Shown: positions 10,119 to 60,072, counted from the stretch's first letter. The stretch is DNA of 64,000 nt from Candidatus Woesebacteria bacterium (GCA_016432525.1 CP066693.1:547650-611649), one strand, 5' to 3'. Numbers and translations: made by a program. The notes: a model not told the origin generated them from the sequence alone.

Positions 10119-10134
10119 TGTTATTTATTGTACA

Positions 10135-42389: not shown

Positions 42390-42935
42390 GTGAGATTTAA
42401 AACTTTTAAAAGTGAAGGAATAATTATTTCTCGCAAAAACTTCTCAGAAGCAGATCGCTTAATTACTTTGTTCACCAAAGATTTTGGCAAAATCACTCTT
42501 CTTGCAAAGGGCGTTCGAAAACCAAAAAGCAGAAAACGCGGTTCTCTCGAAATCTTTACTCTTGTGAGTTTTCAAGCCTCAGAAACAAATTCAATTAATT
42601 TAATTACAGAAGTAACTGCAATAAATAATTTTCCAAAAATTAGAAATAATCTAAAACGTACATCAGTAGCCTTTTTTATCTGTGAACTCGTTTCTCGCCT
42701 TACTCAATACGAAGAGCCTCATCTTGATTTATTTTTTTTAGTAGTTAATACTCTCAAAAATTTACAAACCTCGCAAAAACTAAGAGTTTTAAGAGAAAAT
42801 TTTATAAAAGATAGTGTAGTTCTCTTAGGCTTTTGGCCCTCATACAAAAAAATCGACTTTCCTGATAAATTGGTTGAAGAAATTGCCGAAAAAAGACTGT
42901 CTAGTATAAAAATCGGAAAACTCTTAAGCTCGTGA
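42390..42935 (+). CDS. recO: DNA repair protein RecO (short form)
   Basis: The N-terminal OB-fold pattern (EGIIISRKNFSEADRLITLFTKDFGKITLLAKGVRKPKSRK) matches the conserved RecO N-terminus. Its 181-aa length is shorter than the roughly 240 aa typical of RecO. Confidence 0.6.
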   Translation: MRFKTFKSEGIIISRKNFSEADRLITLFTKDFGKITLLAKGVRKPKSRKRGSLEIFTLVSFQASETNSINLITEVTAINNFPKIRNNLKRTSVAFFICELVSRLTQYEEPHLDLFFLVVNTLKNLQTSQKLRVLRENFIKDSVVLLGFWPSYKKIDFPDKLVEEIAEKRLSSIKIGKLLSS

Positions 42936-42965
42936 TACAATATTTCTCACGAGGTAGACGCTAAT

Positions 42966-44066: not shown

Positions 44067-44105
44067 AAGTTGACAAAACAACTTCGTTTGCTACAAAATA
44101 AATAA

Positions 44106-44846
44106 ATGAAAAAGTTTCTACCATTTATTCTTCTCGGAGGTGGAGTAATAGTCTTCATTGTAGTTTTTATGTTTATCAAAAAATCTTTTCAGCCAGCAGC
44201 CGAGCCGACCCCAACAGATGAACCAGTTGTTGAGCTTAAGACTGAAGAAAGTCCTGTTACTTCTCTAACTCCCTCAGCCGATGGTCATTGGCTCAAGCTT
44301 AAAGTTGAAGGAATAAAGCTTAGTGCAAAAAGCATGGATTATGAACTTTTATACACCCTTCCTGATGGCCGCACACAGGGAGTTCCAGGTACAATAGATC
44401 TAAAAGGCCAAGACGCAATTCAAAGAGATTTACTTTTAGGTTCAGAATCCTCGGGAAAGTTTAGATATGATCAAGGGGTAAAAGGTGGAACTTTAACTCT
44501 CAAGTTCAGAGACAATTCTGGAAAATTAACTGGCAAACTCACAACAAACTTTACTCTTTCAAGTAATACAACAAATTTAGCCTCCTCAGATTCCAGTTTT
44601 AAATTCACTCTAGCATCGGATAACGGAAAAACTTTTTATATAGCAATGAAAACATTTGGGCTTCCAGATAAGGCTCCAGGTGTTTTAGCCTCAGGTCCTT
44701 ACGGAATATTTCCATCAGACACAATTTCTCATAAAGGAACAGTTACTTTAAGTGGTTCAAAGCCTTATGAATGGAATGGTGGAAGCTGGCAAAGCATTGA
44801 TACAAGCTCTTCTGTTGAGACCGGAATCTTCATTGGTACCAATTGA
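44106..44846 (+). CDS. Membrane-anchored extracytoplasmic protein, unknown function
   Basis: N-terminal TM helix (LPFILLGGGVIVFIVVFMFI) then a Thr/Ser/Gly-rich beta-like domain. Confidence 0.4.
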   Translation: MKKFLPFILLGGGVIVFIVVFMFIKKSFQPAAEPTPTDEPVVELKTEESPVTSLTPSADGHWLKLKVEGIKLSAKSMDYELLYTLPDGRTQGVPGTIDLKGQDAIQRDLLLGSESSGKFRYDQGVKGGTLTLKFRDNSGKLTGKLTTNFTLSSNTTNLASSDSSFKFTLASDNGKTFYIAMKTFGLPDKAPGVLASGPYGIFPSDTISHKGTVTLSGSKPYEWNGGSWQSIDTSSSVETGIFIGTN

Positions 44847-44911
44847 TCTCTTCTTGACATCTACTACTAAAATATATCAAAATGAATAGATCCAAAACTT
44901 TGTAGAACTAA

Positions 44912-45751
44912 ATGCACAAAAGTGTACTTGTTAAAGAAATAATTGATAGCCTGCACATTAATAGTCAATCTCGGATAATAGATGCAACTCTAGGAGCTGG
45001 TGGCCACACACAAGAAATAGTTAAAAGAGGAGCAAAAGTCTTAGGTGTCGAAACAGATCCAAAAATGCTTGAAATTGCCCGAAAAAACCTAGAAAGCTTC
45101 AAGGATAGAGTAATTTTTGCAAAAGGAAACTTTAAAGATATCGACTCAATAGCAAAAAATAACAATTTTGAAAAAGTGGACGCAATTTTATTTGATCTTG
45201 GAATAAGTAGCTTTCATATAGACGATTTCAAAAGAGGTTTTAGCTTTAGAGAGCGTGAAAGCCTTCTTGATATGAGGCTTGATCCAGATAGTCTTGCACT
45301 TAAAGGATCAGATCTACTAAACACTCTAAGAGAAGATCAGCTAAAAGAACTTTTTTCAGTATCAATTACAGAGCCTGATTTATCTAGACTTGTCAGAAAA
45401 ATCATAAATTATAGAATTCAAAACTTAATAAAAACTGTTGGCCAATTCAAAGAAATTGTTGATTCAGTTTCCTCTAGAGGTAGAAGCTTAATTCCATCTA
45501 CTCTCGCATTTATGGCAGTAAGAATAGCAGTTAATTCAGAACTTGATGTTTTAAGCCAAGCTCTTCCAAAAGCATATTCACTGCTTAAAAAGGATGGAAA
45601 ACTTTTGATTATAAGTTTTCATTCAGGCGAGGATAGTATAGTTAAGAAATTTTTTAAAAAAGAAGGAATTCTCATTATACCCACAAAAGAAGAGATTGAC
45701 GAAAATAGCCGTGCTCGGTCAGCAAAACTTAGGATTCTTACAAAAACATGA
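44912..45751 (+). CDS. rsmH: 16S rRNA (cytosine1402-N4)-methyltransferase RsmH (MraW)
   Basis: HKSVLVKEIIDSL...IDATLGAGGHTQEI...FDLGISS motifs of RsmH; first gene of the dcw cluster. Confidence 0.85.
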   Translation: MHKSVLVKEIIDSLHINSQSRIIDATLGAGGHTQEIVKRGAKVLGVETDPKMLEIARKNLESFKDRVIFAKGNFKDIDSIAKNNNFEKVDAILFDLGISSFHIDDFKRGFSFRERESLLDMRLDPDSLALKGSDLLNTLREDQLKELFSVSITEPDLSRLVRKIINYRIQNLIKTVGQFKEIVDSVSSRGRSLIPSTLAFMAVRIAVNSELDVLSQALPKAYSLLKKDGKLLIISFHSGEDSIVKKFFKKEGILIIPTKEEIDENSRARSAKLRILTKT

Positions 45752-46038: not shown

Positions 46039-47739
46039 GTGAAAAAAAGATTAACTGCTCTTTCATTAATCTATGTAGTAAGTATTCTTTTTATTTCAGT
46101 CCGTCTCTTTTTTTGGCAAATTGTAAAAGGATCCTCCCTTTCCCAAATTGCAACATCTCAATATCAAAGTCAGTCTCAAACTAAAGCTTTTCGTGGGGCA
46201 ATTCTTGACAGTGGTGGTTCATATCTTGTTGCAAGTGTCACCTCCTGGAGATTATTTGCAAATCCTCCAAAAATTAAGGATAACAAAAAAGTTATAGCAA
46301 ATACTCTTGCCCCACTTCTAGTTGAGGACCCAAAAGATATAAAAGATGAAGTTTCTCTTATAGAGAATGATCTCAATAGTAACTCTCCTTATATTCCAAT
46401 AAAAGAAAAAATAAGCGATGATGTAAAGAAAAAAATTGAGAATTTAAGTTTTACAGGATTGGGATTTGAAAGTATTGAAGATCGTCTATATCCAGAAGGC
46501 TCAAGTTCAGCCCAACTTTTAGGTTTTGTTGGCAAAGATAAGGAAGGCGGAGATGTTGGTTACTTTGGCTTAGAAGGTTATTACGACCTTCCTCTTAAAG
46601 CAAAAACAGGCTTTACAATTAGAGATACTGATCCATTTGGCCATCCAATTCTTTCAGGCGATTTAAGCTCGGTTCCTGAACTTGGAGGCGTAGATTTAGT
46701 AACCTCAATAAATAAAGGTATCCAACTTTTGGTTGAGCAAAAACTTTCAAAAGCAATGGAAACCTATGAAGCCAAATTGGGAAATGTCATAATTATGGAT
46801 CCTAAGGATGGCAAAATTCTAGCAATGGCTTCCTATCCCTCTTTCGACCCAAGAAAATACTATGATTATAGTAACGAACTTTTTAAAAATCCTAATATTT
46901 CAGATAGTTTCGAGCCAGGCTCCATTTTCAAGCCTCTGGTAATGGCAGCTGGCTTTGACTCTAAGGTTATTAATAAAAACACTTTCTGTGACATTTGTGA
47001 TAAACCTTACAAAGTTGATAAGTATCAGATAGAAACTTGGAACCAACAATACTTTCCCAATTCTTCCATGACAGATATTATTGTTCATTCGGATAATGTT
47101 GGAATGACTTTTGTGGGTCTAAAGCTTGGAGGTAAGCGCTTAATAGATTATATAGATAAATTTGGGATCGGTCACTTAACTGGAATTGATTTACAAGGTG
47201 AGGATACTCCTCCTTCAAGAAAAAAAGATGAATGGAACATAGTCGATGAGGTCACCGCGACTTTTGGACAAGGAGTTGCAGTAACTCCTATCCAAATGAT
47301 AAGGAGTCTATCTACAATTGCCAATGGTGGCTTCTTAGTAAGACCTCATGTAGTCCAAAGTATTAAAAAAGATGATTTTACAAAAAACGTAGAATTAGAT
47401 GCTCCAACTAGAGTAATAACCAAAGATGCAGCAAACACAGTAAAAGATATGATGATTAAAGCAGTTAAAGACGGTGAAGCAAAATGGGCAATGCCAAAAG
47501 GCTTTTTGATAGCCGGAAAAACAGGAACAGCTCAAATTCCAGTTGCCGGACATTACGACTCAAAAAAAACAATCGCAAGCTTTGTAGGTTTTGCTCCAGC
47601 CAATGATCCAAAATTTATCATGTTAGTTTCGTTAACTGAACCTCAAAGCTCTCAGTGGGGAGCAGAAACAGCAGCTCCCTTGTGGGCAGATATTGCTCGC
47701 GATTTATTCCCAATGCTTGGTATCCATCCAGAAAATTGA
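46039..47739 (+). CDS. ftsI: Class B penicillin-binding protein / peptidoglycan D,D-transpeptidase FtsI
   Basis: N-terminal TM anchor; SxxK (SIFKP), SxN (HSDN) and KTG (KTGTA) active-site motifs in the correct order. Confidence 0.85.
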   Translation: MKKRLTALSLIYVVSILFISVRLFFWQIVKGSSLSQIATSQYQSQSQTKAFRGAILDSGGSYLVASVTSWRLFANPPKIKDNKKVIANTLAPLLVEDPKDIKDEVSLIENDLNSNSPYIPIKEKISDDVKKKIENLSFTGLGFESIEDRLYPEGSSSAQLLGFVGKDKEGGDVGYFGLEGYYDLPLKAKTGFTIRDTDPFGHPILSGDLSSVPELGGVDLVTSINKGIQLLVEQKLSKAMETYEAKLGNVIIMDPKDGKILAMASYPSFDPRKYYDYSNELFKNPNISDSFEPGSIFKPLVMAAGFDSKVINKNTFCDICDKPYKVDKYQIETWNQQYFPNSSMTDIIVHSDNVGMTFVGLKLGGKRLIDYIDKFGIGHLTGIDLQGEDTPPSRKKDEWNIVDEVTATFGQGVAVTPIQMIRSLSTIANGGFLVRPHVVQSIKKDDFTKNVELDAPTRVITKDAANTVKDMMIKAVKDGEAKWAMPKGFLIAGKTGTAQIPVAGHYDSKKTIASFVGFAPANDPKFIMLVSLTEPQSSQWGAETAAPLWADIARDLFPMLGIHPEN

Positions 47740-48643
47740 CTGATTCTGATATAATTATATACGTTGTGGAAAGTTAATCATGGAAAACATAGAAAAAAAA
47801 GTAGTCTTAGTCATATATAGATGCGAATTAGGAAAAACTGAATTTCAAAAACAATTTAGTTTTTAAATGACGATACTCCACCAGAAGCACTACCTTGTAT
47901 ATGTGAATCAAAAAATCAAGAACATTCTGCTGTTATTTCTAAAATAGAAGTCGTAGAGCTATCTCAACCTCGAAGTCTTGAAAGAAAACTTTAAAAATAA
48001 TTAATGTTTAAAGATAGAAGACCAGGGATAGGTGAAGGAGAAGCAAACCAATATATTTATGCCTATGTCGATCAAAAAAAAGCAGGGTTCGATACGGCAG
48101 CAGTTTTAAAAGAATTGCAAACTTTTTACCCTTCAGACCTAAATATTAACAACTCGCAAAGATTCCCAACTATAATTTTGGGAATCGGATGTGTTTACCA
48201 TCTTCGGCTGCAATGTGTATTAACTTAATTAAAGGTCGACGGATAATAAGCGATTCAAACGAAACTTCTATTAAAGTAAGCGATATTTATAGACTACTGC
48301 TTCCACTTCACGGTAAAAACCTAGATTCACTATTCCCTTCCTTCCAGTGAAAGACAAGCTGATGACGAGAAAGTGCATTGTCAAAGGGCGCCGATTATCT
48401 CAATGAGGTCCGAACCAAGCAGGGGGACTGCAATCTGAAGAAGCTTGCTTGGGCGATGATGTGATTCATCAATTGACATCGGTTATAAGGTCATGATAGA
48501 GGAAGTAGGGGAGGGGATGCAACCGTGTGATATTGGGCCAAGAGACCTTCGTAGCCGAAACTTCCTAGAACTGTACAAGACTATACAAATGAGCAGGGCA
48601 TTGGCTCAGAGAGATCTATACTGATCACGCATGACAGATTGAC

Positions 48644-49024
48644 TTGGCAGAGGGGATCATGGCTGTACCACTTGTCCTCATCGTTGACGATGATCCTGCG
48701 CAGTTGATGTTGTATAGCCTGGTACTGCGACCGTTACCGTGCTACATTGCAACGGCACCGAGCGGCGAAGCAGCGCTCAAGCTGCTTGAGAATGCGCACC
48801 CGGCACTCCTGATAGTCGATATTCTCTTGCCCGGAATGAGTGGGGCAGATGTGATACGTACCATTAGGAAGGATGCGCAGTTTGCGCCAATGAAAATTGT
48901 TGCCCTAACTGTTGTTCCACACATGCTTGCCCAGGAGGATACGGCTCTTTGCAATGTCGTGCTTGCCAAACCAATCGGTGTGGCACAACTCAAACAAGTG
49001 ATTCGAGACTTGTTGGGTGTATAG
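48644..49024 (+). CDS. Stand-alone response regulator receiver (REC, CheY-like) domain protein
   Basis: LVLIVDDDPAQL (acidic pocket); phospho-acceptor Asp in LLIVDILLPGMSG; the downstream conserved residues of REC domains are present; 126 aa with no output domain. Confidence 0.75.
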   Translation: MAEGIMAVPLVLIVDDDPAQLMLYSLVLRPLPCYIATAPSGEAALKLLENAHPALLIVDILLPGMSGADVIRTIRKDAQFAPMKIVALTVVPHMLAQEDTALCNVVLAKPIGVAQLKQVIRDLLGV

Positions 49025-49426
49025 GTGGCTGATCCTCCCGTATTCCGATTCCAGTCGGCGGGACAAGGTAATTCTCGTTGCCCCAACAGTACAGCGAGAA
49101 TCTGTTCTTTGTCGCGCAAAGTCGCGGAATGTTGGAAAAGTCAGGCGAAAGGTGAGCCACGATCAAAGCGTCTAAAGCGTATGAAGTTAAATGTCGAGAA
49201 AACCAGTGTGAGTGAGAGTTTGGACCTGCAATCCATCCTTAAGTGTCCAGTATGCGGGTTTTCCAAAGAGGAAATCATGCCGACGGATAGTTGCCAATTC
49301 TTCTATACTTGCACAAATTGTCACACACGACTACGGCCTAAGCCTGGCGATTGCTGCGTGTTTTGCTCGTATGGGAGCAAAAAATGTCCGTCCAAACAGA
49401 GGGAGGAGTCCGATCAATTGCCGTAG
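49025..49426 (+). CDS. Cys-rich small protein with GDCCVxC-like metal-binding motif
   Basis: CPVCG...CTNCH...GDCCVFCSYG...C cluster; translational junction ATG right after the REC stop; the alternative start at the Met at 49181 gives about an 81-aa product. Overlaps a convergent small ORF at its 3' end. Confidence 0.4.
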   Translation: MADPPVFRFQSAGQGNSRCPNSTARICSLSRKVAECWKSQAKGEPRSKRLKRMKLNVEKTSVSESLDLQSILKCPVCGFSKEEIMPTDSCQFFYTCTNCHTRLRPKPGDCCVFCSYGSKKCPSKQREESDQLP

Positions 49427-49523
49427 TCTGCGCCGTTTCCATCAAGCTACAGGAGGAAAGGGGAATAAGGGCGGTAACGAAAACCAGTACAATGAGACGC
49501 ACAATAATACTTTTTTGCGACAT
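49338..49523 (-). CDS. Possible small lipoprotein (61 aa)
   Basis: MSQKSIIVRLIVLVFVTALIPLSSC has a signal peptide with a lipobox-like LSSC. Overlaps the 3' end of the plus-strand Cys-rich ORF, so one of the two may be spurious. Confidence 0.25.
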   Translation of the reverse strand: MSQKSIIVRLIVLVFVTALIPLSSCSLMETAQTTAIDRTPPSVWTDIFCSHTSKTRSNRQA

Positions 49524-49826
49524 GTTTTAGGCGCAGGGATTGGATGGAAGGGGGTATAACAAGGATAGGACTTACGCAGTTGGAGGGGTTCTTGGCGCTA
49601 CGAGCCGATTCCGCAGAAATGCCCAAACCGGCGTTTTGCTGCACAGGAAGCCTAACTTGGGGTTCAACTGCGTAACTCCTACCCCTACAGAGTCACTTAG
49701 GGAGAGCTAGAATGGGCAGCAAACTCAAGAAAAAAGCTCTGGCTTATAGTCTGAGCAAAGGGGGTGACGACACTATTGGGGCTATGGGGTGGAACACAGG
49801 GGTGATCGTTAACCCTTTCGATGATT

Positions 49827-50639
49827 TTATGTCGAATCCCGAAGTATGTCGATCACCGTAGTGATCAATCGGTCGTTTTGAAGTGCAAAAGTATGAACGG
49901 ACTGCCTATTGGTGTCGATTCCTTGGATTATGATATGAGGTTGTGTTGCACACAGAACTCTGCCTTCATCTAGACCAACTATCTCATCGCCCTCTGTAAC
50001 TATGTTTATAATTCGCTGTACTGGGGAATTCCCCTCAGCGCAGCCTTCGATAATCCTCATCAAACCATTCGTCCGAAGTTCTTGGAACACTAGCGGAGGC
50101 TGCTGCGAACCAAGAAACGGTCTATTCTTTTCAAGAAAATTTGCCTTGTAGGCTTCCCAGTATTTGTCTGAGCCTCGCAATGGTGAGTTTATGATGGTTA
50201 TAGACCGCACCCGCTTCACAGTATCTGATTTTGCGCGAGATCGAGTGATAGCCCAATATAATGCGATAGTTCCCATTAATGAATGGCATACCATATCTAC
50301 AACAGACCGTCTATAAAACTTAAGAAAATCATCAAACTGATATGCAAAATCAGAAATTGACTGAATAACCGTATCCTTTTTGGAATAAGAGAATCCTGGA
50401 TCACGGTATCCTAACCACTGTATAGATACATACGTATCTTTTACTTTGATCTGCTGATGAATGGCCTGAGCTAAAAGATCGAATGATTTTCTGCCTTCGT
50501 ACCAGTTTTGCAGGGAACCTGGCCCCAAAAGAATGAGCCGATCCTGCTGTGAATGCACCTCAGCTTCATTTTTGTTACGAGCAGAGATGCTTACAGCCCG
50601 CATGAACTTTCCAATTTTCTCTTCTTCACTGTCCGGCAT
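49827..50639 (-). CDS. Hypothetical protein (270 aa), weak alpha/beta-hydrolase-like features
   Basis: G+C-rich ORF with good coding look; CHSLMG resembles but does not match a GxSxG nucleophile elbow; no firm family assignment. Confidence 0.3.
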   Translation of the reverse strand: MPDSEEEKIGKFMRAVSISARNKNEAEVHSQQDRLILLGPGSLQNWYEGRKSFDLLAQAIHQQIKVKDTYVSIQWLGYRDPGFSYSKKDTVIQSISDFAYQFDDFLKFYRRSVVDMVCHSLMGTIALYWAITRSRAKSDTVKRVRSITIINSPLRGSDKYWEAYKANFLEKNRPFLGSQQPPLVFQELRTNGLMRIIEGCAEGNSPVQRIINIVTEGDEIVGLDEGRVLCATQPHIIIQGIDTNRQSVHTFALQNDRLITTVIDILRDST

Positions 50640-50674
50640 AAAGATCCTGCTAAAGTAGCGATGAAATAAATAAA

Positions 50675-50704
50675 GGCTTGCTCATCTTATCCGTTGAGCA
50701 AGTC
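50675..50704 (-). terminator. Candidate intrinsic terminator for the minus-strand 183-aa gene
   Basis: GGCTTGCTCA - 10-nt loop - TGAGCAAGTC hairpin immediately downstream (minus-strand sense) of the stop at 50763, followed by a T-rich run on the minus strand. Confidence 0.35.
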
Positions 50705-50762
50705 TTATAGAATACACTATATGTAGTTAGTGGTCGAATTATATGGAAGTCAAACTGCCGCT

Positions 50763-51314
50763 TCAATCAATATGTTCAATTCGCCCAGAAGAAAATACCC
50801 TTATGTCGTGTGACTCAACAGTTCCACGCAAGACAGTGCCATTATCTGCTATTGGCGGAGAAAAACAAGCCCATTGCGCATTGAGATCAATTTGAATCTT
50901 AGAAATCAGAGAATGATATGGTTTGCACTGACGGTCAAACTTCGCGTGTCGAACATCCAACTTGAAATGCGGCGCTCTGCTGAAAAGGTCGCGTGTAACT
51001 GTCAAAATAACCGTGTCATCCTTGGTATGGAGCAGACTGTCTTCGACGAGAGAGATTTCATAAACAGCAACTTCTTGATCTGAATCAGGATCATCGCTCT
51101 TCTGTTGGACTTCGACAGGATTTCCAAAAACATGAGCAAGTTCACTTATCCAATCAACGTTGCTGTCCGTATAATTGATTTCCCGAAGATCGGCTGCTAC
51201 GGACACTTTTCGATTTCGTTCAAAAGAATGATGAGGTTGCGTGCTCTCTGAGCGATTAATAATCGAGGCAACAAATCCTCTCAATCGACTCTTTTCTCTT
51301 TCTTTAGAAGCCAT
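50763..51314 (-). CDS. Hypothetical protein (183 aa)
   Basis: G+C-rich ORF, acidic central region, no recognisable motif. Confidence 0.35.
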   Translation of the reverse strand: MASKEREKSRLRGFVASIINRSESTQPHHSFERNRKVSVAADLREINYTDSNVDWISELAHVFGNPVEVQQKSDDPDSDQEVAVYEISLVEDSLLHTKDDTVILTVTRDLFSRAPHFKLDVRHAKFDRQCKPYHSLISKIQIDLNAQWACFSPPIADNGTVLRGTVESHDIRVFSSGRIEHID

Positions 51315-51463
51315 GATTGCTCCCTACATGTGAAGGATGATGAGTATTCCGATCGCCCGACGCGCGAATCGGCAATAGCTCATCCTCCAATAAGATGACA
51401 CAATAAGATAACATATAATGACATTATCATGTTTTTGTGCTATTATGTCAACCCGTTAAAGTG

Positions 51464-51483
51464 TTAACATGCTGTCATGTTAA
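51464..51483. promoter_or_regulatory. Perfect palindrome TTAACATG-N4-CATGTTAA (candidate operator) in divergent promoter region
   Basis: 8-bp inverted arms with a 4-bp spacer overlapping the first ATG of the wHTH ORF; related half-sites (GTTAACA, ACATTATCATG) occur 30-70 bp upstream. Confidence 0.35.
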
Positions 51484-51737
51484 GATTCAGGGGGAATGGT
51501 CTGATCATGAACGAGGGCCTCTCAATTTATGCTAATAAGATCTTGGATTTACTGCGCCAGCGGGGCGAATGGATGAAAAGGAGTGAAATTGCAAAAGGGT
51601 TAGGCCGCAAACGCTTGACTGGCAGCCACCTTACTGCACTGGCAATACTTGAGGAGCGCAAACTCATCGAGGTTGAAAAGCGGCCAGACAATCGCCCAAT
51701 CGGACTTATATTCTTTTACAGAGCAATCAACGATTGA
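51477..51737 (+). CDS. Small winged-helix DNA-binding protein (putative transcriptional regulator)
   Basis: ILDLLRQRGEWMKRSEIAKGLGRKRLTGSHLTALAILEERKLIEV is a wHTH-like pattern; the true start is possibly the Met at 51507 (MNEGLSIY). Confidence 0.4.
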   Translation: MLRFRGNGLIMNEGLSIYANKILDLLRQRGEWMKRSEIAKGLGRKRLTGSHLTALAILEERKLIEVEKRPDNRPIGLIFFYRAIND

Positions 51738-52012
51738 GTTTCTGCTTCCTGGGTTTGGGTCGTCTTGGGCCGTCCCTCACAACACGGACACTCGAAGCGC
51801 TTGGGGCGATAGCGGATCACAACTTCCCAGCCAAAACTGGGCAGATGTCTCACCTGTACCCACTCACTGTACCCGGCAAAGCGCCGTATCTCCCGTCCAC
51901 AACGTTTACAGTGTGTGCTTTCCACACTGATGCTCAGTTGCTTGGCTCCCTGTACCTCGACCTTCACCACCTCTACATCAGGTAGATCCAATGGAATGGT
52001 GAGTTCGGCCAC
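51716..52012 (-). pseudogene. ISL3-family transposase, N-terminal zinc-finger fragment only (truncated)
   Basis: LDLPDVEVVKVEVQGAKQLSISVESTHCKRCGREIRRFAGYSEWVQVRHLPSFGWEVVIRYRPKRFECPCCEGRP matches the ISL3 N-terminus (C-x2-C ... RFxC-x2-C zf-ISL3). Stops after 98 aa, so no catalytic DDE region. Confidence 0.6.
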
Positions 52013-52155
52013 CCTACTCTCTCACTTCGTTTGCTCCCTACCCCTGCCTAATACTACTCCCACAGGTACGCCCGACTCCAGAATCTCCCAATGAACCGAA
52101 TTTCCTCGGTCATTTGCCGAACATCTTCTGCATCTAACCTGTTTTTCGCTATGAT

Positions 52156-52299
52156 TGTCAGTTTTAACGAAAAATGAAAGGATTTTTTACAACAAAATTG
52201 AAATCATAAATTAAACTTATCCCTTATTATTGGGATAAATAGTAAATAGACATTTCATTTTTCACATAAATTCTGTTACAAATTTCGTTAAAACTGACA
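52156..52299. repeat. Perfect 17-bp inverted repeat pair (TGTCAGTTTTAACGAAA / TTTCGTTAAAACTGACA) flanking a 110-bp A+T-rich spacer; MITE-like
   Basis: Copy 1 at 52156-52172, reverse-complement copy 2 at 52283-52299; the second arm overlaps the 3' end of the toxin ORF. Confidence 0.5.
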
Positions 52300-52633
52300 G
52301 CTTGTGATCATTTCTGGATTTTTTTACTATATGTAAATAGTGGATTGTACGATAATTGGTGATGAAGAAGATTCTGATCCAGTGTTTTCGTTTGGGGAGT
52401 CTTAGTTCCCGCAGTTTACCATCAATCTGTCCTGTATGTAGACTGCCCAGTAAATTTCCCTCTTGCTTGTGTCGTCTGATAAGTTGTTCTACAGCGCTTC
52501 GCTCTAAATTTGGCAACCTCTCGATATATTCTTGAACTGGTGACCGGCCTTGTTTCGTTTTGTAGAACTCGACTGCAAATCGCGGTTTCTCCAACCTGGC
52601 CTCCTTCTCGTTACGCACCGGATAGTGAGCCAA
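52262..52633 (-). CDS. Type II toxin, RelE/ParE superfamily, Gp49/HigB-like (DUF891-type)
   Basis: VEFYKTKQGRSPVQEYIERL...GKLRELRL...RIFF...IHYLHIVKKSRNDH follows the Gp49-like toxin consensus (xEFy...G..pv..f...l.....LRelR....RifY......i.LLH.F.KKt.k.p). No adjacent HTH antitoxin ORF is evident. Confidence 0.55.
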   Translation of the reverse strand: MAHYPVRNEKEARLEKPRFAVEFYKTKQGRSPVQEYIERLPNLERSAVEQLIRRHKQEGNLLGSLHTGQIDGKLRELRLPKRKHWIRIFFITNYRTIHYLHIVKKSRNDHKLSVLTKFVTEFM

Positions 52634-52703
52634 CAGGCAGTCCTAATTTTCAATTTTTGAAATCAAAAAAGGACTCGAATCCTTTTTAACTACCGATCAC
52701 AGA

Positions 52704-53093
52704 ATGAAAATAATAAAACATAAATCAGGATGTATAATAATCGATGATACTTACAACAATAATCCTCAGGCAGCACTTAAAGCTTTAAAGACATTGGAAT
52801 CAGTGTCTAGTGGTAAAAAAATTGGAATAGTTTTTGGTGACATGCTTGAATTAGGCAAAAATGAGGCTAAATTTCACAAGAAAATAGCTCGAAAAATACA
52901 AAAATTAAAACCAAAATTTATAGTTTTAGTAGGTAACGCAACAAAAGGTTTGATCAAAGAATCTTTCTGGTTTGAAAAAAACCAAACTAAAGAAATAGTA
53001 ATGACTCTCAAAAAACTAATAAAAAAAGACTTCGTGGTTCTTTTTAAAGGTTCTCGATCAATCGGTCTGGATGATATAATATCTAAGTTATGA
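52704..53093 (+). pseudogene. murF: murF remnant: C-terminal domain only of UDP-MurNAc-tripeptide--D-Ala-D-Ala ligase
   Basis: IIDDTYNNNPQAALKALKTLESV...KIGIVFGDMLELGKNEAKFHKKIA...KGSRSIGLDDII is the Mur ligase C-terminal domain. The reading frame is closed upstream, so only about 129 of the expected 430-460 aa are present. Confidence 0.6.
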
Positions 53094-54142
53094 ATGTCCC
53101 AAACATTCTCCCTTTGGTTTTAGGGTTAATTCTGTTCTCGTTCTTTGTTTCGAGCCTTCTAGTTGTTCCATTTATTAACCTTCTTTACAAAATCAAGCTT
53201 ACCCGTCGTCGAGAAGCAATGGGTAAGAAAAAAACTCTTTTTGAAAAACTTCATGATATCAAATCAGGTACACCAATTGGAGGTGGGGTTTTGATAATTG
53301 TCATAGTTGTTACCCTTTTTGCAGTCCTTTTTCCAATCCTTTTAAATTTTGGAGTTTTTATTCATTCATCTTTTAATCTCTTTAAAGAACTTCTAGTCAT
53401 ATTTTTTACATTCATTTCGTTTGGTCTTTTAGGACTTCTCGATGACTTTGTAAAAACATTTGGAAAACCCAAAACAGGAAACGTAGGTGCTGTTTTTGGT
53501 CTAACTAAAAAACAAAAATTTTCAATTCAATGGGTTCTTGCCTTAATTACAGCCTTTATCCTTTATCAATTTTTGGGAATCCATATCCTTCATCTTCCAC
53601 TTCTCAACTCAGTTATAGATCTCGGAATTTTTTATGTTCCTTTTGCAGCAACAGTCATAGTCTTCTTTGCAAATGCCTTTAATTTCACAGACGGGCTTGA
53701 TGGCTTAGCATCTGGCCTACTTGTAATTTATTTAATTAGCTATATCTTTATAAGTGCAGGTAACCTTGATACAACTCTTTTTATGTTCATTTCAATTTGG
53801 CTCGGCGCAATAATTGCCTTCCTTTACTTTAATGTTTATCCTGCTCGTGTTTTTCTGGGGGATGCAGGAGCTCTTTCTTTTGGTTCAACCATAGCACTCA
53901 TTGGTTTATTAACAGGAAATGTCGCAACTCTTTTTGTGATTGGTGGGATTTTTGTAATTGAAGCAGCCTCAAGTGCAATTCAAATCATCTCAATCAAATT
54001 CTTCAACAAAAGGGTTTTTCCTCTTGCTCCAATTCATCACAGCTTCTTGGCAATTGGCTGGGAAGAACCAAAAATTGTGATGAGAGCCTGGATTGCAGGT
54101 ATAATTTTGGCAATTTTTGGGCTTTGGCTTGCCGCAATTTAA
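53090..54142 (+). CDS. mraY: Phospho-N-acetylmuramoyl-pentapeptide transferase MraY
   Basis: About 10 TM helices; NAFNFTDGLDGLASG and VFLGDAGALSFGSTIA motifs. Confidence 0.85.
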   Translation: MNVPNILPLVLGLILFSFFVSSLLVVPFINLLYKIKLTRRREAMGKKKTLFEKLHDIKSGTPIGGGVLIIVIVVTLFAVLFPILLNFGVFIHSSFNLFKELLVIFFTFISFGLLGLLDDFVKTFGKPKTGNVGAVFGLTKKQKFSIQWVLALITAFILYQFLGIHILHLPLLNSVIDLGIFYVPFAATVIVFFANAFNFTDGLDGLASGLLVIYLISYIFISAGNLDTTLFMFISIWLGAIIAFLYFNVYPARVFLGDAGALSFGSTIALIGLLTGNVATLFVIGGIFVIEAASSAIQIISIKFFNKRVFPLAPIHHSFLAIGWEEPKIVMRAWIAGIILAIFGLWLAAI

Positions 54143-55214
54143 AATGCAAAAAAAACCAGTTGATCGCCTTCTTTTAATTCTCACATTTCTCCTTACACTA
54201 ATAGGTATAATTTTTGTAGCCGATGTTTCAGCTCCACAAGCAAAAGCTTTCTTTTCCGACAGCTACTTTTTTGTAAAACAACAATTGATTTGGGGAGTTT
54301 TAGGAATAATTGCGCTAATAGTTGCAAGTAAAATTCACTATATTTTTTGGAAAAAAATTTCATACTATTTATTTTTCGCAAATATCTTTTTACTAATCTT
54401 GGTTTTGATTCCGCATTTTGGTAATAAGCTTCTTGGAGCTAGGCGGTGGATTAGTTTTGGGCCTATTACAATTCAACCATCAGAGTTGGTAAAACTAACT
54501 CTTGCTCTTTACATTGCAAATCTTGCTGATAGGAAAAAAGAAGTTCTTTATTATTTAATTCCAGTCGCACTCGTTGCAGGGCTCATTATGCTTGAGCCAG
54601 ATCTAGGAACAACAATTATTGTTGTTGCAATTGGTCTAACTCAAATATTTCTTGCAGGTATTCCTCTTGTTTATTTAGCATCAATTTTAGGTACAGGGGG
54701 AATTGTCGGATTCATATTAATAGTTTTTTCAAATTATAGAAAAACAAGATTTATGCATTTCTTAAGCGGTCTGAAAGATCCATTGGATAGCTCCTATCAT
54801 GTAAAACAAATTCTTTTCGCTTTAGGATCAGGTGGTCTTTTCGGAGTAGGTATTGGCCAATCAAAACAAAAATATCTTTTTTTGCCTGAGGCGGCAACAG
54901 ATTCTGTTTTTGCAATAATTGCAGAAGAAATAGGATTTTTTGGAAGTCTTGCAATTATTATTCTTTTACTTTTGATAGTTTTAAGAATTTTTAAGATTGC
55001 CAAAAGCGCACCTGACACTTTTTCCAACATCTTGGTTAGTGGAATAGGTATCTGGCTTGGAATTCAAATCCTAATCAATCTTGGCTCAATTGTAGCCCTT
55101 ATTCCCTTAACTGGCGTACCACTACCGTTCTTTTCATATGGAGGCTCAAGCTTGACAATGTTGCTTTTAGGTATTGGAATAGTATTAAACATAAGTAAAT
55201 ATGCAAAAAAATAA
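54117..55214 (+). CDS. ftsW: SEDS-family peptidoglycan glycosyltransferase FtsW
   Basis: RWISFGPITIQPSELVKLTLALYIAN and the C-terminal PLTGVPLPFFSYGGSS motifs of the FtsW/RodA family; position between mraY and murG. Confidence 0.8.
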   Translation: MGFGLPQFKMQKKPVDRLLLILTFLLTLIGIIFVADVSAPQAKAFFSDSYFFVKQQLIWGVLGIIALIVASKIHYIFWKKISYYLFFANIFLLILVLIPHFGNKLLGARRWISFGPITIQPSELVKLTLALYIANLADRKKEVLYYLIPVALVAGLIMLEPDLGTTIIVVAIGLTQIFLAGIPLVYLASILGTGGIVGFILIVFSNYRKTRFMHFLSGLKDPLDSSYHVKQILFALGSGGLFGVGIGQSKQKYLFLPEAATDSVFAIIAEEIGFFGSLAIIILLLLIVLRIFKIAKSAPDTFSNILVSGIGIWLGIQILINLGSIVALIPLTGVPLPFFSYGGSSLTMLLLGIGIVLNISKYAKK

Positions 55215-56283
55215 TATAGTTATAACAGGCGGGCATGCAGCAACAACGGCCCTGGCAACGATACAAAGCTTAAAAACCAAAGACCCAAATTTAGAAATTT
55301 ACTTTATAGGTGTAAAAAAAGCACTCGAAGGAAAAAATACTCAGACATTAGAATCGCAAATTTTTCCACAAATTGGAGTTTATTATCGTACAATTACCAT
55401 GGGCCGTCTTCAAGCCAAATTCACAAGATATACAATTCCCTCTCTTCTCAAAATCCCAATTGGTTTTTACAATTCTTTAAACTTGCTTCTAAAAATACGA
55501 CCAAAACTGATCCTTTCTTTTGGTGGCTTTGCATCAATTCCAGTCTGTTTTTGGGGATATTTGCTAAAAATTCCAATAATAATCCATGAACAAACCGTTT
55601 CTGTGGGTCTTGCCAACAAAATTTCCTCTATATTTGCAACAAAAATAGCCTTGGCAAGAGAAGAAAGTAAAGCCTTTTTCCCGATCTCAAAAACTATTTT
55701 AACCGGAAACCCAATTCTTGGATCAATTGTAAACATCAAGCCTAAAAACAAAATAGGTTCACCTCCAGTTATTTTCATAACATGTGGCTCTCGTGGCTCC
55801 CAGACAATAAATAATGCTTTATTTCCAATTCTGGAAAAGCTAGCTAAAAACTTTAAAATCATCCATCAAACAGGTGAGTTAGATTTCGAAAAGTTCAATA
55901 AATTGAATCTAAAAAATTACAAAGCCTACAAGATTATATCACCTTTCGAGATAGGTTCATTTTATAAAACGGCAGACATAATAATTTCCAGATCTGGAGC
56001 CAATACCATTGCAGAAATTATGCTTCTAAAGATTCCTTCGATTATTATCCCCATTCCATGGACAAGATATAATGAACAAACAAAAAACGCTTTATTTGCG
56101 AAAAAATATGCTCCTATAGAAATAATAAAACAAGATTTGCTAAGCCCAGATTTACTGTTTCAAAAAATATATTTTTTGAAAAACAATTGGAGCACTCTCA
56201 AGAAACAAAACAATAAAAGTTTTCAAAATGATACAAAAGCAGCAAAAAATCTGACCAATCTAGTATTTGAATACATAAAGTGA
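55201..56283 (+). CDS. murG: Lipid II synthase MurG (GT28)
   Basis: IVITGGHAATTALA N-terminal glycine-rich motif; C-terminal GANTIAEIMLLKIPSIIIP region; position in the dcw cluster. Confidence 0.8.
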   Translation: MQKNNIVITGGHAATTALATIQSLKTKDPNLEIYFIGVKKALEGKNTQTLESQIFPQIGVYYRTITMGRLQAKFTRYTIPSLLKIPIGFYNSLNLLLKIRPKLILSFGGFASIPVCFWGYLLKIPIIIHEQTVSVGLANKISSIFATKIALAREESKAFFPISKTILTGNPILGSIVNIKPKNKIGSPPVIFITCGSRGSQTINNALFPILEKLAKNFKIIHQTGELDFEKFNKLNLKNYKAYKIISPFEIGSFYKTADIIISRSGANTIAEIMLLKIPSIIIPIPWTRYNEQTKNALFAKKYAPIEIIKQDLLSPDLLFQKIYFLKNNWSTLKKQNNKSFQNDTKAAKNLTNLVFEYIK

Positions 56284-56969
56284 ACAAAAAAATAATTTAC
56301 TTCCTAGAATTTGGAATAATTGTTATAATCGTTACTATTTTTTTGAAGAAATTTTTAATAGTTAAAAAAATCAGATGTATAAGTGACATTAGCTGTAGTA
56401 TCACTCTTACCCAGAAACTTCAAAAAGCTCAAAATCTACCTCTTTTTACATCAAAATCAACGGTTTTAGATATTCTAAAAAAAGAAGTTACAGTTAAAAA
56501 CTATTCAATGAGAATAAAACCGCCCGATAGTTTAGAAGTTTATATTATAGAGAGAAAAGAAAGTGCAGGCTTTGCCGCAAATGGAAAGTTTGTTTACGTC
56601 GACGATGAAGATGTTGTTATAAAATTCTCAGACAAAAAAGATAATGTTCCGCAGATTAATATCTACGATGGTAAAAATTATAAATTTAGAATAGGTGACA
56701 AGCTCCCAGAAAATCTAGTATTCGCTAGTGCTTTATCTCGCGATCTCTCAAATTTGTATGCAATTAAAGAAATTACTTTAGGAAAAACTGACATTTCAGC
56801 CAATTTTCCAAACCTAAAAGTTTTCTTCCCCACAAAAGATGACGAAGACCTTTTAATTGGAAGGCTGAAATTCGTTCTTTCCTGGTTGAACAATAGTTTC
56901 TTACCTTCTAAAATGAAAACACTGGATCTAAGATTCAAAAATCCAGTCGTGAGAAGCGAAAATGGGTAA
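56280..56969 (+). CDS. ftsQ: Cell division protein FtsQ/DivIB-like (POTRA domain)
   Basis: N-terminal TM helix, then a POTRA-like region (VKNYSMRIKPPDSLEVYIIERKESAGFAANGKFVYVDDEDVVI); position before ftsA. Confidence 0.55.
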   Translation: MNKKIIYFLEFGIIVIIVTIFLKKFLIVKKIRCISDISCSITLTQKLQKAQNLPLFTSKSTVLDILKKEVTVKNYSMRIKPPDSLEVYIIERKESAGFAANGKFVYVDDEDVVIKFSDKKDNVPQINIYDGKNYKFRIGDKLPENLVFASALSRDLSNLYAIKEITLGKTDISANFPNLKVFFPTKDDEDLLIGRLKFVLSWLNNSFLPSKMKTLDLRFKNPVVRSENG

Positions 56970-58242
56970 AAATAAAATAATTGCTGCGATTGATATAGGA
57001 TCATCAAAAATAACAACTTTAATAGCGCAACTTGTTGTTGATCAAGTAACTCTTGATTCTTCATTAAACATAGTAGGTGTGGCAGTTGCTCAATCAAAGG
57101 GAGTTAAAAAAGGTCAAATTGTCGACATCGAAGATGCAGTTGAAGCAACAATTCTTTCTGTTGAAGCAGCTGAAAGAATGGCAGGATATAACCTAAACAG
57201 CGCTTTTATTTCAGTAGCTGGAGGCCATATTGGTTGCCAAAATTCAACAGGTGTAGTTGCCGTCTCAGATCCAAACGGTGAAGTAACTCCAGGTGATGTT
57301 GAAAGAGTAATTGAAGGAGCCAAAGCAGTTTCACTTCCAACATCCAGAGAAATTATCCACGTTATTCCAAGACAGTTCACAGTTGACGGAGAACAAGGAG
57401 TTAAAGATCCTGTTGGCATGGCAGGTGTTCGTCTTGAAGTAGACACTCATCTAGTAACAGCCTCAGCGGCAGCTTTAAAAAACCTCTCCAAAACTGTAAA
57501 CGAAGTAGGAATAAAAATCGACGAAGCAGTCTTTTCGGGTTTAGCAAGCTCATTTACAACTCTCACGGAAACTGAAAAAGAGCTTGGCTGTGTTCTTGTG
57601 GATATTGGGGCAGGGACAACATCAGTAGCTGCCTTTGTTGATGGCTCTCTTTCCTATTCATCTTCAATTCCAATTGGAGCTCGAAACGTAACAAACGATT
57701 TAGCAATTGGCTTAAGAGTTTCTCTCGAATCTGCTGAAAAAATAAAACTCGCGCTCTCTAGCAAAAAAAAGCAAGGAAAGGTTGAAGAAAAAGCAGAATT
57801 TTTTGATATAGGAACCCTTTCAGGTGAGGAAAGCAAAAAAGTTTCAAGAAGAACGTTAGTTGAAGGAATAATAAAACCAAGACTAAATGAAATATTTACC
57901 ATGGTTAAACTCGATTTAGAAAAATCAAATATTATAAATAGAATCCCATCAGGTGCAATCATTACAGGTGGAGGATCGCAAACTGTAGGGCTTTTGGAAT
58001 CAGCTAAAAAAACTTTAGCTCTTCCAGTAAGAATAGGAATCCCAACCGGAGTTACTGGCTTAATAGATGACATAGGCACTCCAGCTTTTTCAACTGCAGT
58101 CGGATTAATTCTTTACGCAAAAGAAAAAGAAGGTTTCAAAGAAATTCCTCAAAAAAATTTTGCACCTAAAATTAAAATGCCCACCAAAGGCATTCACTTA
58201 CCTAATAAAATTATAGATATAATAAAAAATCTTCTGCCTTGA
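56962..58242 (+). CDS. ftsA: Cell division protein FtsA
   Basis: IIAAIDIGSSKITTLIAQ actin-fold phosphate-1 motif; DIGAGTTSVAAF phosphate-2; GGGSQTVGL adenosine motif. Confidence 0.85.
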   Translation: MGKNKIIAAIDIGSSKITTLIAQLVVDQVTLDSSLNIVGVAVAQSKGVKKGQIVDIEDAVEATILSVEAAERMAGYNLNSAFISVAGGHIGCQNSTGVVAVSDPNGEVTPGDVERVIEGAKAVSLPTSREIIHVIPRQFTVDGEQGVKDPVGMAGVRLEVDTHLVTASAAALKNLSKTVNEVGIKIDEAVFSGLASSFTTLTETEKELGCVLVDIGAGTTSVAAFVDGSLSYSSSIPIGARNVTNDLAIGLRVSLESAEKIKLALSSKKKQGKVEEKAEFFDIGTLSGEESKKVSRRTLVEGIIKPRLNEIFTMVKLDLEKSNIINRIPSGAIITGGGSQTVGLLESAKKTLALPVRIGIPTGVTGLIDDIGTPAFSTAVGLILYAKEKEGFKEIPQKNFAPKIKMPTKGIHLPNKIIDIIKNLLP

Positions 58243-58293: not shown

Positions 58294-59439
58294 ATGGCAC
58301 TAGTCAAACCAGATTCAGCTAGAATCGCAAAAATTAAAGTAATGGGAGTAGGTGGTGGTGGTGGAAATGCAGTAGCTTCGATGGTTGATGGTGGCCAAAT
58401 AAACGGTGTCGAATTTATAGCTTTAAATACAGATGCCCAAGTTCTCCTCGCAAGTCAGGTTCCAACCAAACTCCAGATTGGAGAAAAACTTACCAAGGGC
58501 CTGGGAGTGGGAGGTCACCCCGAAATTGGTGCTCAAGCTGCAGAAGAATCAACAGAAAAAATAAAGGAGGTATTAATTGATGTAGATATGACTTTCATTA
58601 CAGCAGGAATGGGTGGGGGAACTGGTACTGGTGCAGCTCCTGTAATTGCTCGACTTGCCAAAGAATCAGGCTCCCTTACTGTCGCAGTTGTCACAAAACC
58701 ATTTGCTTTCGAAGGAGCCAGGCGCATGATGCTAGCAGAAGAAGGAATAGAAAAATTAAGAAAAGAAGTTGATACTTTAATTGTTATTCCAAATCAAAGG
58801 CTTTTGGATGTTGTTGATCGAAAAATGACTCTTCTAGAAGCATTCAAAGTTGCAGATAGCGTTTTGGGTCAGGCTGTTGCAGGAATTGCCGAAATTATCA
58901 CAACTCCAGGTCTCGTTAACGTTGACTTTGCAGATGTTAAAGCCATTATGTCCGATGCAGGTTCCGCACTTCTTGGAATTGGAACTGGTGTTGGAGAAAA
59001 TCGTGCACAAATGGCAGCCCGTGCAGCAGTTTCATCTCCACTTTTAGATCTTTCAATAGAAGGAGCTCGCGGAGTTCTTTTCAACATTGCAGGTGGGCCT
59101 GACCTTACAATGTTTGAGGTAGACGAAGCAGCTCGTGTCATTTCAACAACAGCTGATCCTGATGCGAATATCATGTTTGGAGCTGTTATTAAAGAGGATA
59201 TGTCTGATCAAATTAGAATTACAGTTATTGCAACAGGATTTGACGGCTCAGCCGCAGAAATTCATGAAATTCACTCAGCTCCACCCCCACCTCCAATTCA
59301 GGGAGTAGTAAGTGAAGGAATTAAAAAAGAGGAAGAACCTATGGATGAAGATCAAAAAGAAGAATTTGCAAACCCCCGCGACAAAGATGAATTTGGTGAT
59401 GAATTCGAAATACCTGCTTTCCTTCGTAAAGTCCACTAA
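58294..59439 (+). CDS. ftsZ: Cell division GTPase FtsZ
   Basis: Tubulin signature [10 protein letters not shown]; T7 loop NVDFADV; the conserved C-terminal peptide [11 protein letters not shown]. Confidence 0.9.
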
Positions 59440-59503: not shown

Positions 59504-59809
59504 TTGTATTCAAAAAAGCTGCGAGGAGGCCATGAAGATTTTATATCTTCAGCTAGGAATCTCTATGAATTTTTAAAATGTCTAGATATAGTTGCAGGTG
59601 TTGCTCCCTGTAGAATCATACCTGGACATGGGCATAGGGCAGATAAAACAAAAATTAAAGTTGTAAATGAAACTGGATGTCTTCGGGTTAAAGTTATTGA
59701 AAGTAATAAATTTCAATTTTTGCAAATATATTCAAGCAATATTCAAGGAGTAAAAACAGAAATTGAAAGATTTGCACAAGCTAACAATAAGTTTGAATTC
59801 ATTAGTTAA
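59504..59809 (+). CDS. Small conserved-looking hypothetical protein (101 aa), TTG start
   Basis: A perfect SD (AAGGAGG), the TATAAT box and an immediate intrinsic terminator bracket the ORF. No recognisable family. Confidence 0.45.
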   Translation: MYSKKLRGGHEDFISSARNLYEFLKCLDIVAGVAPCRIIPGHGHRADKTKIKVVNETGCLRVKVIESNKFQFLQIYSSNIQGVKTEIERFAQANNKFEFIS

Positions 59810-59848
59810 GCGCCTTATTGGCACAAAAAACCATAAAGGCGCTTTTTT
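59810..59848 (+). terminator. Rho-independent terminator
   Basis: GCGCCTT - loop - AAGGCGC stem directly after the TAA stop, followed by TTTTTT. Confidence 0.55.
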
Positions 59849-59859
59849 CTTGCGAAAAA

Positions 59860-60072
59860 TTGGCCTTTGTGATATTCTACTCGGTTCGGCTGGTATACAG
59901 GTCGAACAATGCCTTACGCAGATGTGGGAGTTTAAGTTTTCTACAAACTACCCCTTTTGGGTTAGACATATTTTTAAACTGGGTGGGGATCTCTTCTCGT
60001 TTCACATCATCTCCCCACCCAGTATTCTTCTTTTCTTTCCTATTCAGATGTTTTCATCTATAATACCCATAA
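59860..60072 (+). promoter_or_regulatory. Candidate T-box riboswitch / attenuator leader of ileS
   Basis: AAACTGGGTGGGGA resembles the T-box consensus (AAnnnGGGUGGnACC). It forms the 5' arm of a 12-bp terminator hairpin (CTGGGTGGGGA / TCCCCACCCAG, 59979-60022) followed by a U-rich tract, about 50 nt before the ileS ATG. An upstream CCCC run could form the alternative antiterminator. Confidence 0.4.

Follow-up and report, generated by a model that had tools for sequence, protein, structure and literature searches.

The murF gene of the dcw cluster in this Woesebacterium is most probably a recent pseudogene remnant. In the account that best fits the evidence as a whole, to which we give a probability of about 0.8, a foreign, IS-associated segment occupies the hypervariable ftsI-mraY interval, and the native sequence separating two genes has been deleted. 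That murF was destroyed by the insertion event is certain. The window, meaning the whole 64,000-bp stretch of DNA that was analysed, encodes proteins of Candidatus Woesebacteria (CPR, Microgenomates), a tiny groundwater bacterium. Its features are collected in Table 1.

A murF fragment upstream of mraY

The 129-aa ORF at 52704-53093, hereafter murF', encodes only the C-terminal domain of MurF, as an earlier reading of the DNA made from the sequence alone (the sequence-only reading) had proposed. Pfam Mur_ligase_C (PF02875) covers the ORF from profile position 3 to position 127 of 127 (E 2e-14), and the NCBIfam murF model TIGR01143 matches it over positions 291-417 of 418 (E 1.9e-28), with a score of 99.6 bits that lies below the whole-protein cut-off of 288.6 and thus misses the curated threshold. 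There is no Pfam match in the ORF to the central ATP-binding domain with its P-loop (PF08245, Mur_ligase_M), nor to the N-terminal domain. Aligned to full-length MurF, the fragment corresponds to the C-terminal end of the protein: residues 264-417 of the MurF of locus L041 match 52650-53090 by tblastn (47% identity, E 2e-37). The MurF proteins of relatives give no tblastn homology 5' of 52650 in any frame.

The homology to murF therefore begins 54 nt 5' of the ATG of the ORF, which amounts to 18 further codons lying behind a stop. The frame upstream was correctly described as closed: the nearest in-frame stop is a TAA at 52644. No ATG, GTG or TTG stands in frame between this stop and 52704, so the frame has no possible extension, and the non-ATG start that could have brought it to full length does not exist. 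The ATG itself codes for a Met inside full-length MurF, the one in the conserved HRM motif that opens the Mur-ligase C-terminal domain, and the ORF is open only because this motif happens to provide an in-frame ATG. The break lies about 20 residues ahead of the domain boundary. The motifs DDTYNNNP, GDMLELG and KGSRS are all intact, and the stop codon overlaps the start of mraY (ATGA). Judged from these features, murF' is a 3' gene remnant with an accidental start codon, best treated as a pseudogene fragment rather than a gene. Because it lacks the ATP-binding central domain, it is not expected to act as a ligase and add D-Ala-D-Ala.

Table 1. Features of the dcw cluster and of the segment between ftsI and mraY (positions in the window).
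Feature	Coordinates	Strand	Evidence
rsmH (mraW)	44912-45751	+	Pfam Methyltransf_5, E 2.6e-74
ftsL-like ORF, 95 aa	45748-46035	+	Position and size; no Pfam match; homologous ORFs in the same place in relatives
ftsI, class B penicillin-binding protein	46039-47739	+	Pfam PBP_dimer and Transpeptidase, E 5e-72
Frameshifted 5' remnant of a native gene (ORFs 48004-48228 and 48189-48350)	48004-48350	+	Homology to L097:4219-5163
Foreign mosaic segment (island), ~4.3 kb	about 48340-52645		GC, Shine-Dalgarno motifs, no homology in relatives
Response-regulator receiver, stand-alone	48659-49024	+	Pfam Response_reg, E 3e-17; NCBI: response regulator, QQG47126.1
GDCCVxC-domain protein, true start probably internal	49025-49426	+	NCBIfam NF041374 GDCCVxC, E 1.9e-28, residues 70-126
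270-aa protein, weakly alpha/beta-hydrolase-like	49827-50639	-	Pfam Abhydrolase_1, E 0.03, below cut-off
183-aa protein	50763-51314	-	No match in four profile libraries
86-aa putative winged-helix protein	51477-51737	+	Weak MarR and Csa3-HTH similarity, below cut-offs
ISL3-family transposase, N-terminal stub, 98 of ~370 aa	51716-52012	-	Pfam Zn_ribbon_ISL3, E 5e-6; PHROG transposase
Orphan RelE/ParE (Gp49/HigB-type) toxin	52262-52633	-	Pfam Gp49, E 1e-8; NCBI: type II TA system RelE/ParE family toxin
murF 3' remnant, codons ~264-418 (open ORF 52704-53093, 129 aa)	52650-53093	+	Pfam, NCBIfam, tblastn
mraY	53090-54142	+	Pfam Glycos_transf_4; 61-70% identical to Woesebacteria MraY
ftsW, 356 aa	54144-55214	+	Pfam FTSW_RODA_SPOVE, E 3.5e-98
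murG	55201-56283	+	Pfam Glyco_transf_28 N- and C-terminal domains
ftsQ-like	56280-56969	+	Position and size; no Pfam match
ftsA	56962-58242	+	Pfam FtsA/SHS2
ftsZ	58294-59439	+	Pfam Tubulin/FtsZ_C

A foreign segment between ftsI and murF'

The DNA that separates ftsI from murF' is mostly of another origin. The edges of this island are approximate: the left one was placed where the GC content steps up and a native remnant ends (see below), the right one at the onset of murF homology. Its GC content is about 45-55%, as opposed to 30-35% in the flanking DNA; in 100-bp bins the values are 0.43-0.58 inside, apart from a few lower ones, and 0.29-0.37 outside. A second and independent sign that it comes from another kind of organism is the contrast in Shine-Dalgarno motifs. 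The genes for the response regulator, the 270-aa protein, the 183-aa protein and the toxin are preceded by GGAG, GAGG or AGGA at -9 to -11, whereas GGAG is absent from all 44 native ORF starts examined, and a motif of this kind near this spacing occurs at just two of them (GAGG at -9, AAGG at -7). The stretches compared upstream of the starts include, for instance, 53065-53089 for a native gene and 48634-48658, 50640-50664 and 51315-51339 for the island. No protein or DNA homology to the island was found in the 160 loci of relatives (described below) or in a sister-species contig, and comparisons with phages and JGI metagenomes gave no match; among plasmids, only the GDCCVxC gene is matched (68-75% nt identity). 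The island is thus a horizontally acquired mosaic from a higher-GC organism that uses Shine-Dalgarno motifs.

Apart from the PHROG transposase match at the ISL3 stub, neither PADLOC nor PHROG assigns a function to any gene in the island, and the 270-aa protein has no PADLOC, NCBIfam or PHROG match and no relatives in JGI metagenomes. The NCBIfam model transpos_ISL3 matches the stub over positions 9-70 of 370. This 98-aa stub is the only mobility gene; no intact transposase or integrase was found in the island, and no target-site duplication or meaningful terminal direct or inverted repeats. The toxin gene is classed as an orphan because no ORF of at least 50 aa, and thus no antitoxin gene, occurs in the 250 bp from its stop (52262) to the ISL3 stub (52012). 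In this AT-rich gap lie a terminator-like hairpin and an inverted repeat of 24 nt (52156-52179 with 52276-52299). The idea that the high-GC stretch might be an rRNA operon was discarded: Rfam and ARAGORN are empty across the window, which has no tRNA gene.

Could the junctions of the island be an artefact, a Woesebacteria contig joined in assembly to the DNA of another organism? The sharp change in GC would fit such a chimera. So would the fact that two assemblies end within the 270-aa gene of the island, 21 bp apart (JACOTY010000018.1 and SRR12113388_13241, at 50103 and 50124); these ends suggest a repeat, or a variant sharing sequence, somewhere in the community. However, a chimera would need two matching misjoins placed exactly between the halves of one gene cluster. 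Copies of the region are found in a 916,571-bp NCBI contig (QQG47124.1-QQG47137.1, HY044_), in the MAG GCA_016178105.1 (HYS03_), and in the Logan assemblies SRR12113414, SRR12113415 and SRR12113388. These five contigs, from four sequencing datasets, are all 100% identical to the window; three of them, independently assembled, span the whole arrangement from ftsI through the insert to murF', and all five span the junction between the insert and murF'. We consider an assembly chimera extremely improbable. The 916,571-bp contig is taken to be a complete genome, judging from its size and accession style. Since the genotype with the island is the consensus of the population, in this contig as well as in the second MAG and the three Logan assemblies, it is not lethal, and the lethality once entertained for a peptidoglycan-making cell lacking these genes can be set aside.

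The left edge and a probable deletion

The low-GC DNA directly after ftsI is native. It carries the 5' part of another gene, whose homologue in the L097 locus (L097:4219-5163, 314 aa, without Pfam family) lies between murE and murF. Positions 48043-48123 correspond to residues 21-47 of this protein and positions 48189-48317 to residues 70-111, in different frames (combined E 1.7e-12; tblastx against 80 loci, E 3e-7). The sequence-only reading had suggested that the spacer after ftsI might hold decayed codons of murE or murF. There are none of murE, murF or murA in 47740-48350, and the stretch is instead the frameshifted remnant of this unrelated native gene.

The island is thus flanked by two cut native genes, the left one interrupted after about codon 111 and murF, on the right, before codon 264. 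Before the event, a normal full-length murF would have abutted mraY. A foreign segment would then have entered the ftsI-mraY interval, cutting the native gene on the left and murF on the right, and the intervening native sequence would have been lost, either at insertion or by a later IS-mediated deletion. The mechanism can only be inferred because there are no target-site duplications or terminal repeats, and the layout before insertion is likewise inferred rather than observed, because no relative found exceeds 70% MraY identity. The claim that the island displaced murE and most of murF holds for murF, whose first ~263 codons are gone. For murE it is unproven, given the native DNA after ftsI and the variability of the interval.

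The dcw cluster in Woesebacteria

The gene order rsmH, ftsL-like, ftsI, insert, murF', mraY, ftsW, murG, ftsQ-like, ftsA, ftsZ, proposed in the sequence-only reading, stands with Pfam, the ftsL and ftsQ labels being positional. Searches by tblastn with 376 proteins of relatives gave no homology to any other Mur ligase, MurA, MurB or Ddl in the 64-kb window, and no mur genes were found in the 10 kb to its right. There is no mraZ in the 65-bp gap ahead of rsmH. In relatives this side of the cluster reads recO-glyS-(246-aa gene)-mraZ-rsmH, and in the window (42390-45751) a DUF2130 gene (42966-44066) takes the place of glyS. Since glyS is essential and is displaced here, it must be encoded elsewhere, and the genome has been rearranged around the cluster.

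Some further features of the surroundings deserve mention. The gap between ftsZ and ileS (59504-60095) contains two overlapping small ORFs of 101 and 110 aa with TTG starts, the former being an annotated gene in public assemblies, without Pfam family. The ~40 kb 5' of the cluster (window 1-42000) is rich in glycosyltransferases, large membrane proteins and sugar-nucleotide enzymes, with a trio of radical-SAM, DegT and FemAB-like genes on the minus strand at 9030-12305; this composition indicates a large cell-envelope glycan locus.

The comparison set comprises 160 loci collected with MraY as probe, half of them from GTDB species representatives and half from JGI metagenomes (80 each); gene labels come from NCBIfam for one reference locus and from BLAST for the others. 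The closest relative among these 160 loci, in the GTDB and JGI sets alike, has 70% MraY identity. The absence of murD and murC after mraY, where most bacteria have them, was noticed in the sequence-only reading and is real, but it is not an anomaly. In 69 of the 77 loci that share at least 59% MraY identity, ftsW is the first gene 3' of mraY; murD has this place in none, and murC, murB and ddl are downstream of mraY in none. The absence of murD and murC there is typical of the lineage, because 0/77 of these relatives carry either gene downstream of mraY. The order in the window, mraY-ftsW-murG-ftsQ-ftsA-ftsZ-ileS-rodA, is the norm of the clade, and where murC, murD, murB or ddl are clustered in the clade, they lie upstream, between ftsI and mraY. 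Hence, the lack of murC, murD and murE in the cluster mostly reflects the gene order of the lineage rather than the insertion event. For annotation, this means that mur genes of Woesebacteria are to be sought between ftsI and mraY or elsewhere, and that their absence after mraY does not equal gene loss.

The content of the ftsI-mraY interval ranges from eight mur-pathway genes to none. In L024 it holds murA-murE-murC-murB-murD-pgeF-ddl-murF, and L016, L028 and L113 have similar blocks, with murI or without ddl; other relatives have partial mur sets. At the opposite extreme, ftsI is directly beside mraY in L021, L023, L048 and L059 (GTDB, with gaps of 21-88 bp), and gene order shows the same adjacency in the JGI loci L116, L119, L124 and L135. 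Among 73 GTDB loci, 66 have at least one mur gene upstream of mraY, and in 26 the gene immediately 5' of mraY, in the same orientation, is a full-length murF. Internal truncation of murF was not observed in any of the 160 loci. The one near relative found, a 3.5-kb contig of a sister species (L089; GCA_040960765.1, JBFOMR010051180.1), is 85.5% identical in nucleotides across ftsL-ftsI; the homology ends at 47735, at the ftsI stop, and different genes follow, namely one for a beta-propeller protein and an ORF with homologues in the ftsI-mraY interval of L010 and L011. The interval is hypervariable among the 160 relatives and is a rearrangement hot spot in Woesebacteria, and annotation should treat it as such.

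The relatives also differ in the kinds of genes they carry. There are two types of MurA, 31-35% identical to each other (L024:529-1815 versus L007 and L018), and two forms of MurF, one of 370-435 aa beside mraY and another of 460-540 aa (L010:6155-7723 versus L024:8708-9964). An alpha/beta-hydrolase gene invariably accompanies the longer form, and DegT-type aminotransferase and FemAB-like genes often follow. In another lineage of Microgenomates (L056:3650-4039, also L147 and L149), an unrelated 129-aa ORF lies between ftsI and mraY. It looks hydrophobic and has neither an NCBIfam match nor similarity to Mur proteins; the match in length with murF' is coincidental.

The age of the remnant and its possible roles

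Several observations bear on when murF was cut. When the identity of the murF C-terminal region was regressed on MraY identity across 27 relatives, the mean residual of the window was +2.9 points, which is within the range of the relatives. In a neutral simulation with substitutions only, the probability that the frame stays open is 0.32 after 0.05 substitutions per site and falls to 0.11 at 0.10 and to 0.05 at 0.15. This leaves two options, a recent truncation or a frame of murF' that remains under some constraint. The event is probably recent on an evolutionary scale, because the remnant has neither excess divergence nor stop codons, and the unameliorated GC of the island argues for it too. 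Still, an intact fragment that has all its motifs and overlaps mraY may have retained a role, for example in translational coupling to mraY or as one half of a split MurF.

Could murF' be a functional stand-alone protein, either the member of a small family of its own or a split-MurF half? The break about 20 residues before the domain boundary leaves the whole Pfam domain and the conserved motifs in place, and an exhaustive HMMER search returned many matches of 125-200 aa. Yet the short homologues examined, P0002 and P0003, are cut by the ends of their contigs, with frames open to the edge and running into central-domain sequence, and the short MurF calls in the 80 JGI loci are all at contig starts, as are those of L017 and L074 (GTDB). 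In the HMMER search, which covered 1.84 billion cluster representatives, only murF' itself reached E<=1e-30; the next match is a 413-aa MurF, 47% identical, aligned at residues 276-411. The 18 codons of murF homology ahead of the ATG, behind a stop, also speak against a protein that starts where this one does. A complete and conserved small family, which the sequence-only reading had named as the finding that would overturn the truncation, does not emerge from the 160 loci or from the 1.84 billion representatives. We have rejected a stand-alone Mur_ligase_C family, its short homologues being contig-end artefacts with none internal in the 160 loci, and we hold an independent function of this kind to be quite unlikely.

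Somewhat less unlikely, though still doubtful, is that murF' has been kept for the sake of mraY, either delivering ribosomes to the ATGA overlap or housing a promoter that now drives mraY to ftsZ after the island separated the operon from its promoter upstream. The stop of one gene overlaps the start of the other, mraY has no Shine-Dalgarno motif, and the frame of murF' is intact. Moreover, the last gene of the island is directed away from mraY, so that mraY requires a new source of transcription, and weak promoter-like sites occur at 52686-52714 and 52972-52999. However, native genes generally lack Shine-Dalgarno motifs, so there is no special need for coupling here, and the 13 promoter-like sites are not in excess of the 9.9 +/- 3.4 found in shuffled sequence. 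A recent origin accounts just as well for the intact frame, and we retain the reading of murF' as a recent pseudogene remnant.

Where MurF might come from

The disruption of murF raises an intriguing question: what provides the MurF activity? The genotype with the island is dominant in several groundwater samples, and mraY, murG, ftsW, ftsI and rodA are intact. Our guess, held with little more than even confidence, is that the activity is supplied from elsewhere in the genome. Fixation of the genotype in the population makes a MurF encoded elsewhere the most likely source. Furthermore, few or no mur genes occupy the ftsI-mraY interval in many relatives, so that in this group they often lie at other sites. 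No second murF close to the fragment emerged from a word-based k-mer search, which argues against a recent duplicate. In searches with MurF (L041) and MurA (L024) as queries, no protein of the 916,571-bp contig was among the best 120 of thousands of matches; the power of these searches is low, as the expected identities (~40% for MurF, and ~62% for MurA in the case of one of its two types) are at or below the cut-offs of the lists.

The alternative is that the loss is real. The bacterium would lack MurF, perhaps along with the entire cytoplasmic Mur pathway, and it would depend on a host for its precursors or be in the course of losing peptidoglycan, with mraY, murG, ftsW, ftsI and rodA not yet decayed. 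With an ancestor of the L024, L016 or L113 type, the deletion would have taken murA, murE, murC, murB, murD, pgeF or murI, ddl and murF, and, depending on this layout, the whole pathway from murA to murF may have been lost recently in one replacement. The cell would then be a natural precursor auxotroph, fed by its host or having an unconventional wall. The lack of mur homologues in the 64-kb window and in the 10 kb to its right fits such a loss, as do the lack of a close second murF by k-mer search and, with low power, the absence of the 916,571-bp contig among the best 120 matches listed for MurF or MurA. The persistence of the genes for the membrane steps says nothing on the matter, because the event is recent. 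On the other side, published work credits CPR bacteria with essentially complete peptidoglycan pathways (PMC7143001; PMC13293708). The genotype has become fixed in several samples, the interval contains hardly any mur genes or none in many relatives, and the native DNA directly after ftsI excludes a full block of mur genes immediately there. The list searches with MurF and MurA, being low in power, weigh little. We consider a real loss of MurF improbable, though a slightly more serious contender than a role of murF' in the expression of mraY.

The two outcomes differ in what they mean. If a second murF exists, murF' is a routine pseudogene. If there is none, this may be a symbiont that has newly become dependent on the wall precursors of another cell, which would give direct insight into the dependence of episymbiotic CPR bacteria on their hosts.

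Comparison with known systems

The natural counterparts of murF' are the full-length MurF proteins (UDP-MurNAc-tripeptide--D-alanyl-D-alanine ligase) of other Woesebacteria. The C-terminal 154 residues of those in L041 (8707-9963) and L024 (8708-9964) align with it end to end, at 47% and 40% identity, respectively, and the gene occupies this position and orientation directly 5' of mraY in 26 of 73 relatives. Unlike murF', these proteins have residues 1-263, which form the N-terminal and the central ATP-binding domains.

The classical dcw cluster has the order mraZ-rsmH-ftsL-ftsI-murE-murF-mraY-murD-ftsW-murG-murC-ddl-ftsQAZ. The cluster described here has kept rsmH-ftsL-ftsI at one end and mraY-ftsW-murG-ftsQ-ftsA-ftsZ at the other. 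It differs from the classical one in lacking mraZ at its beginning. In the classical arrangement murD and murC are 3' of mraY, whereas in this clade they never are (0/77), and the mur genes are found between ftsI and mraY or elsewhere.

MurF is essential wherever penicillin-binding proteins cross-link peptidoglycan. Bacteria with naturally incomplete precursor pathways are known: Tannerella forsythia is a MurNAc auxotroph, and in insect endosymbionts the pathway is completed by the host. If there is no other murF, the Woesebacterium would resemble them in keeping the late steps while an early one is missing, although we know of no case among them in which MurF was lost and MraY, MurG, FtsW and FtsI were kept.

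Finally, the insertion of islands and the IS-mediated deletion of adjacent DNA are a well-known general route to bacterial pseudogenes. The remnants made in this way share with the present case the foreign composition, the relics of a transposase and of a toxin-antitoxin system, and the truncation of native genes at both edges. Here, by contrast, there is no intact transposase or integrase and there are no terminal repeats or target-site duplication, and the victim is an essential cell wall gene in the dcw cluster of an apparently complete genome. The disruption of murF is thus a familiar type of event in an uncommon location.
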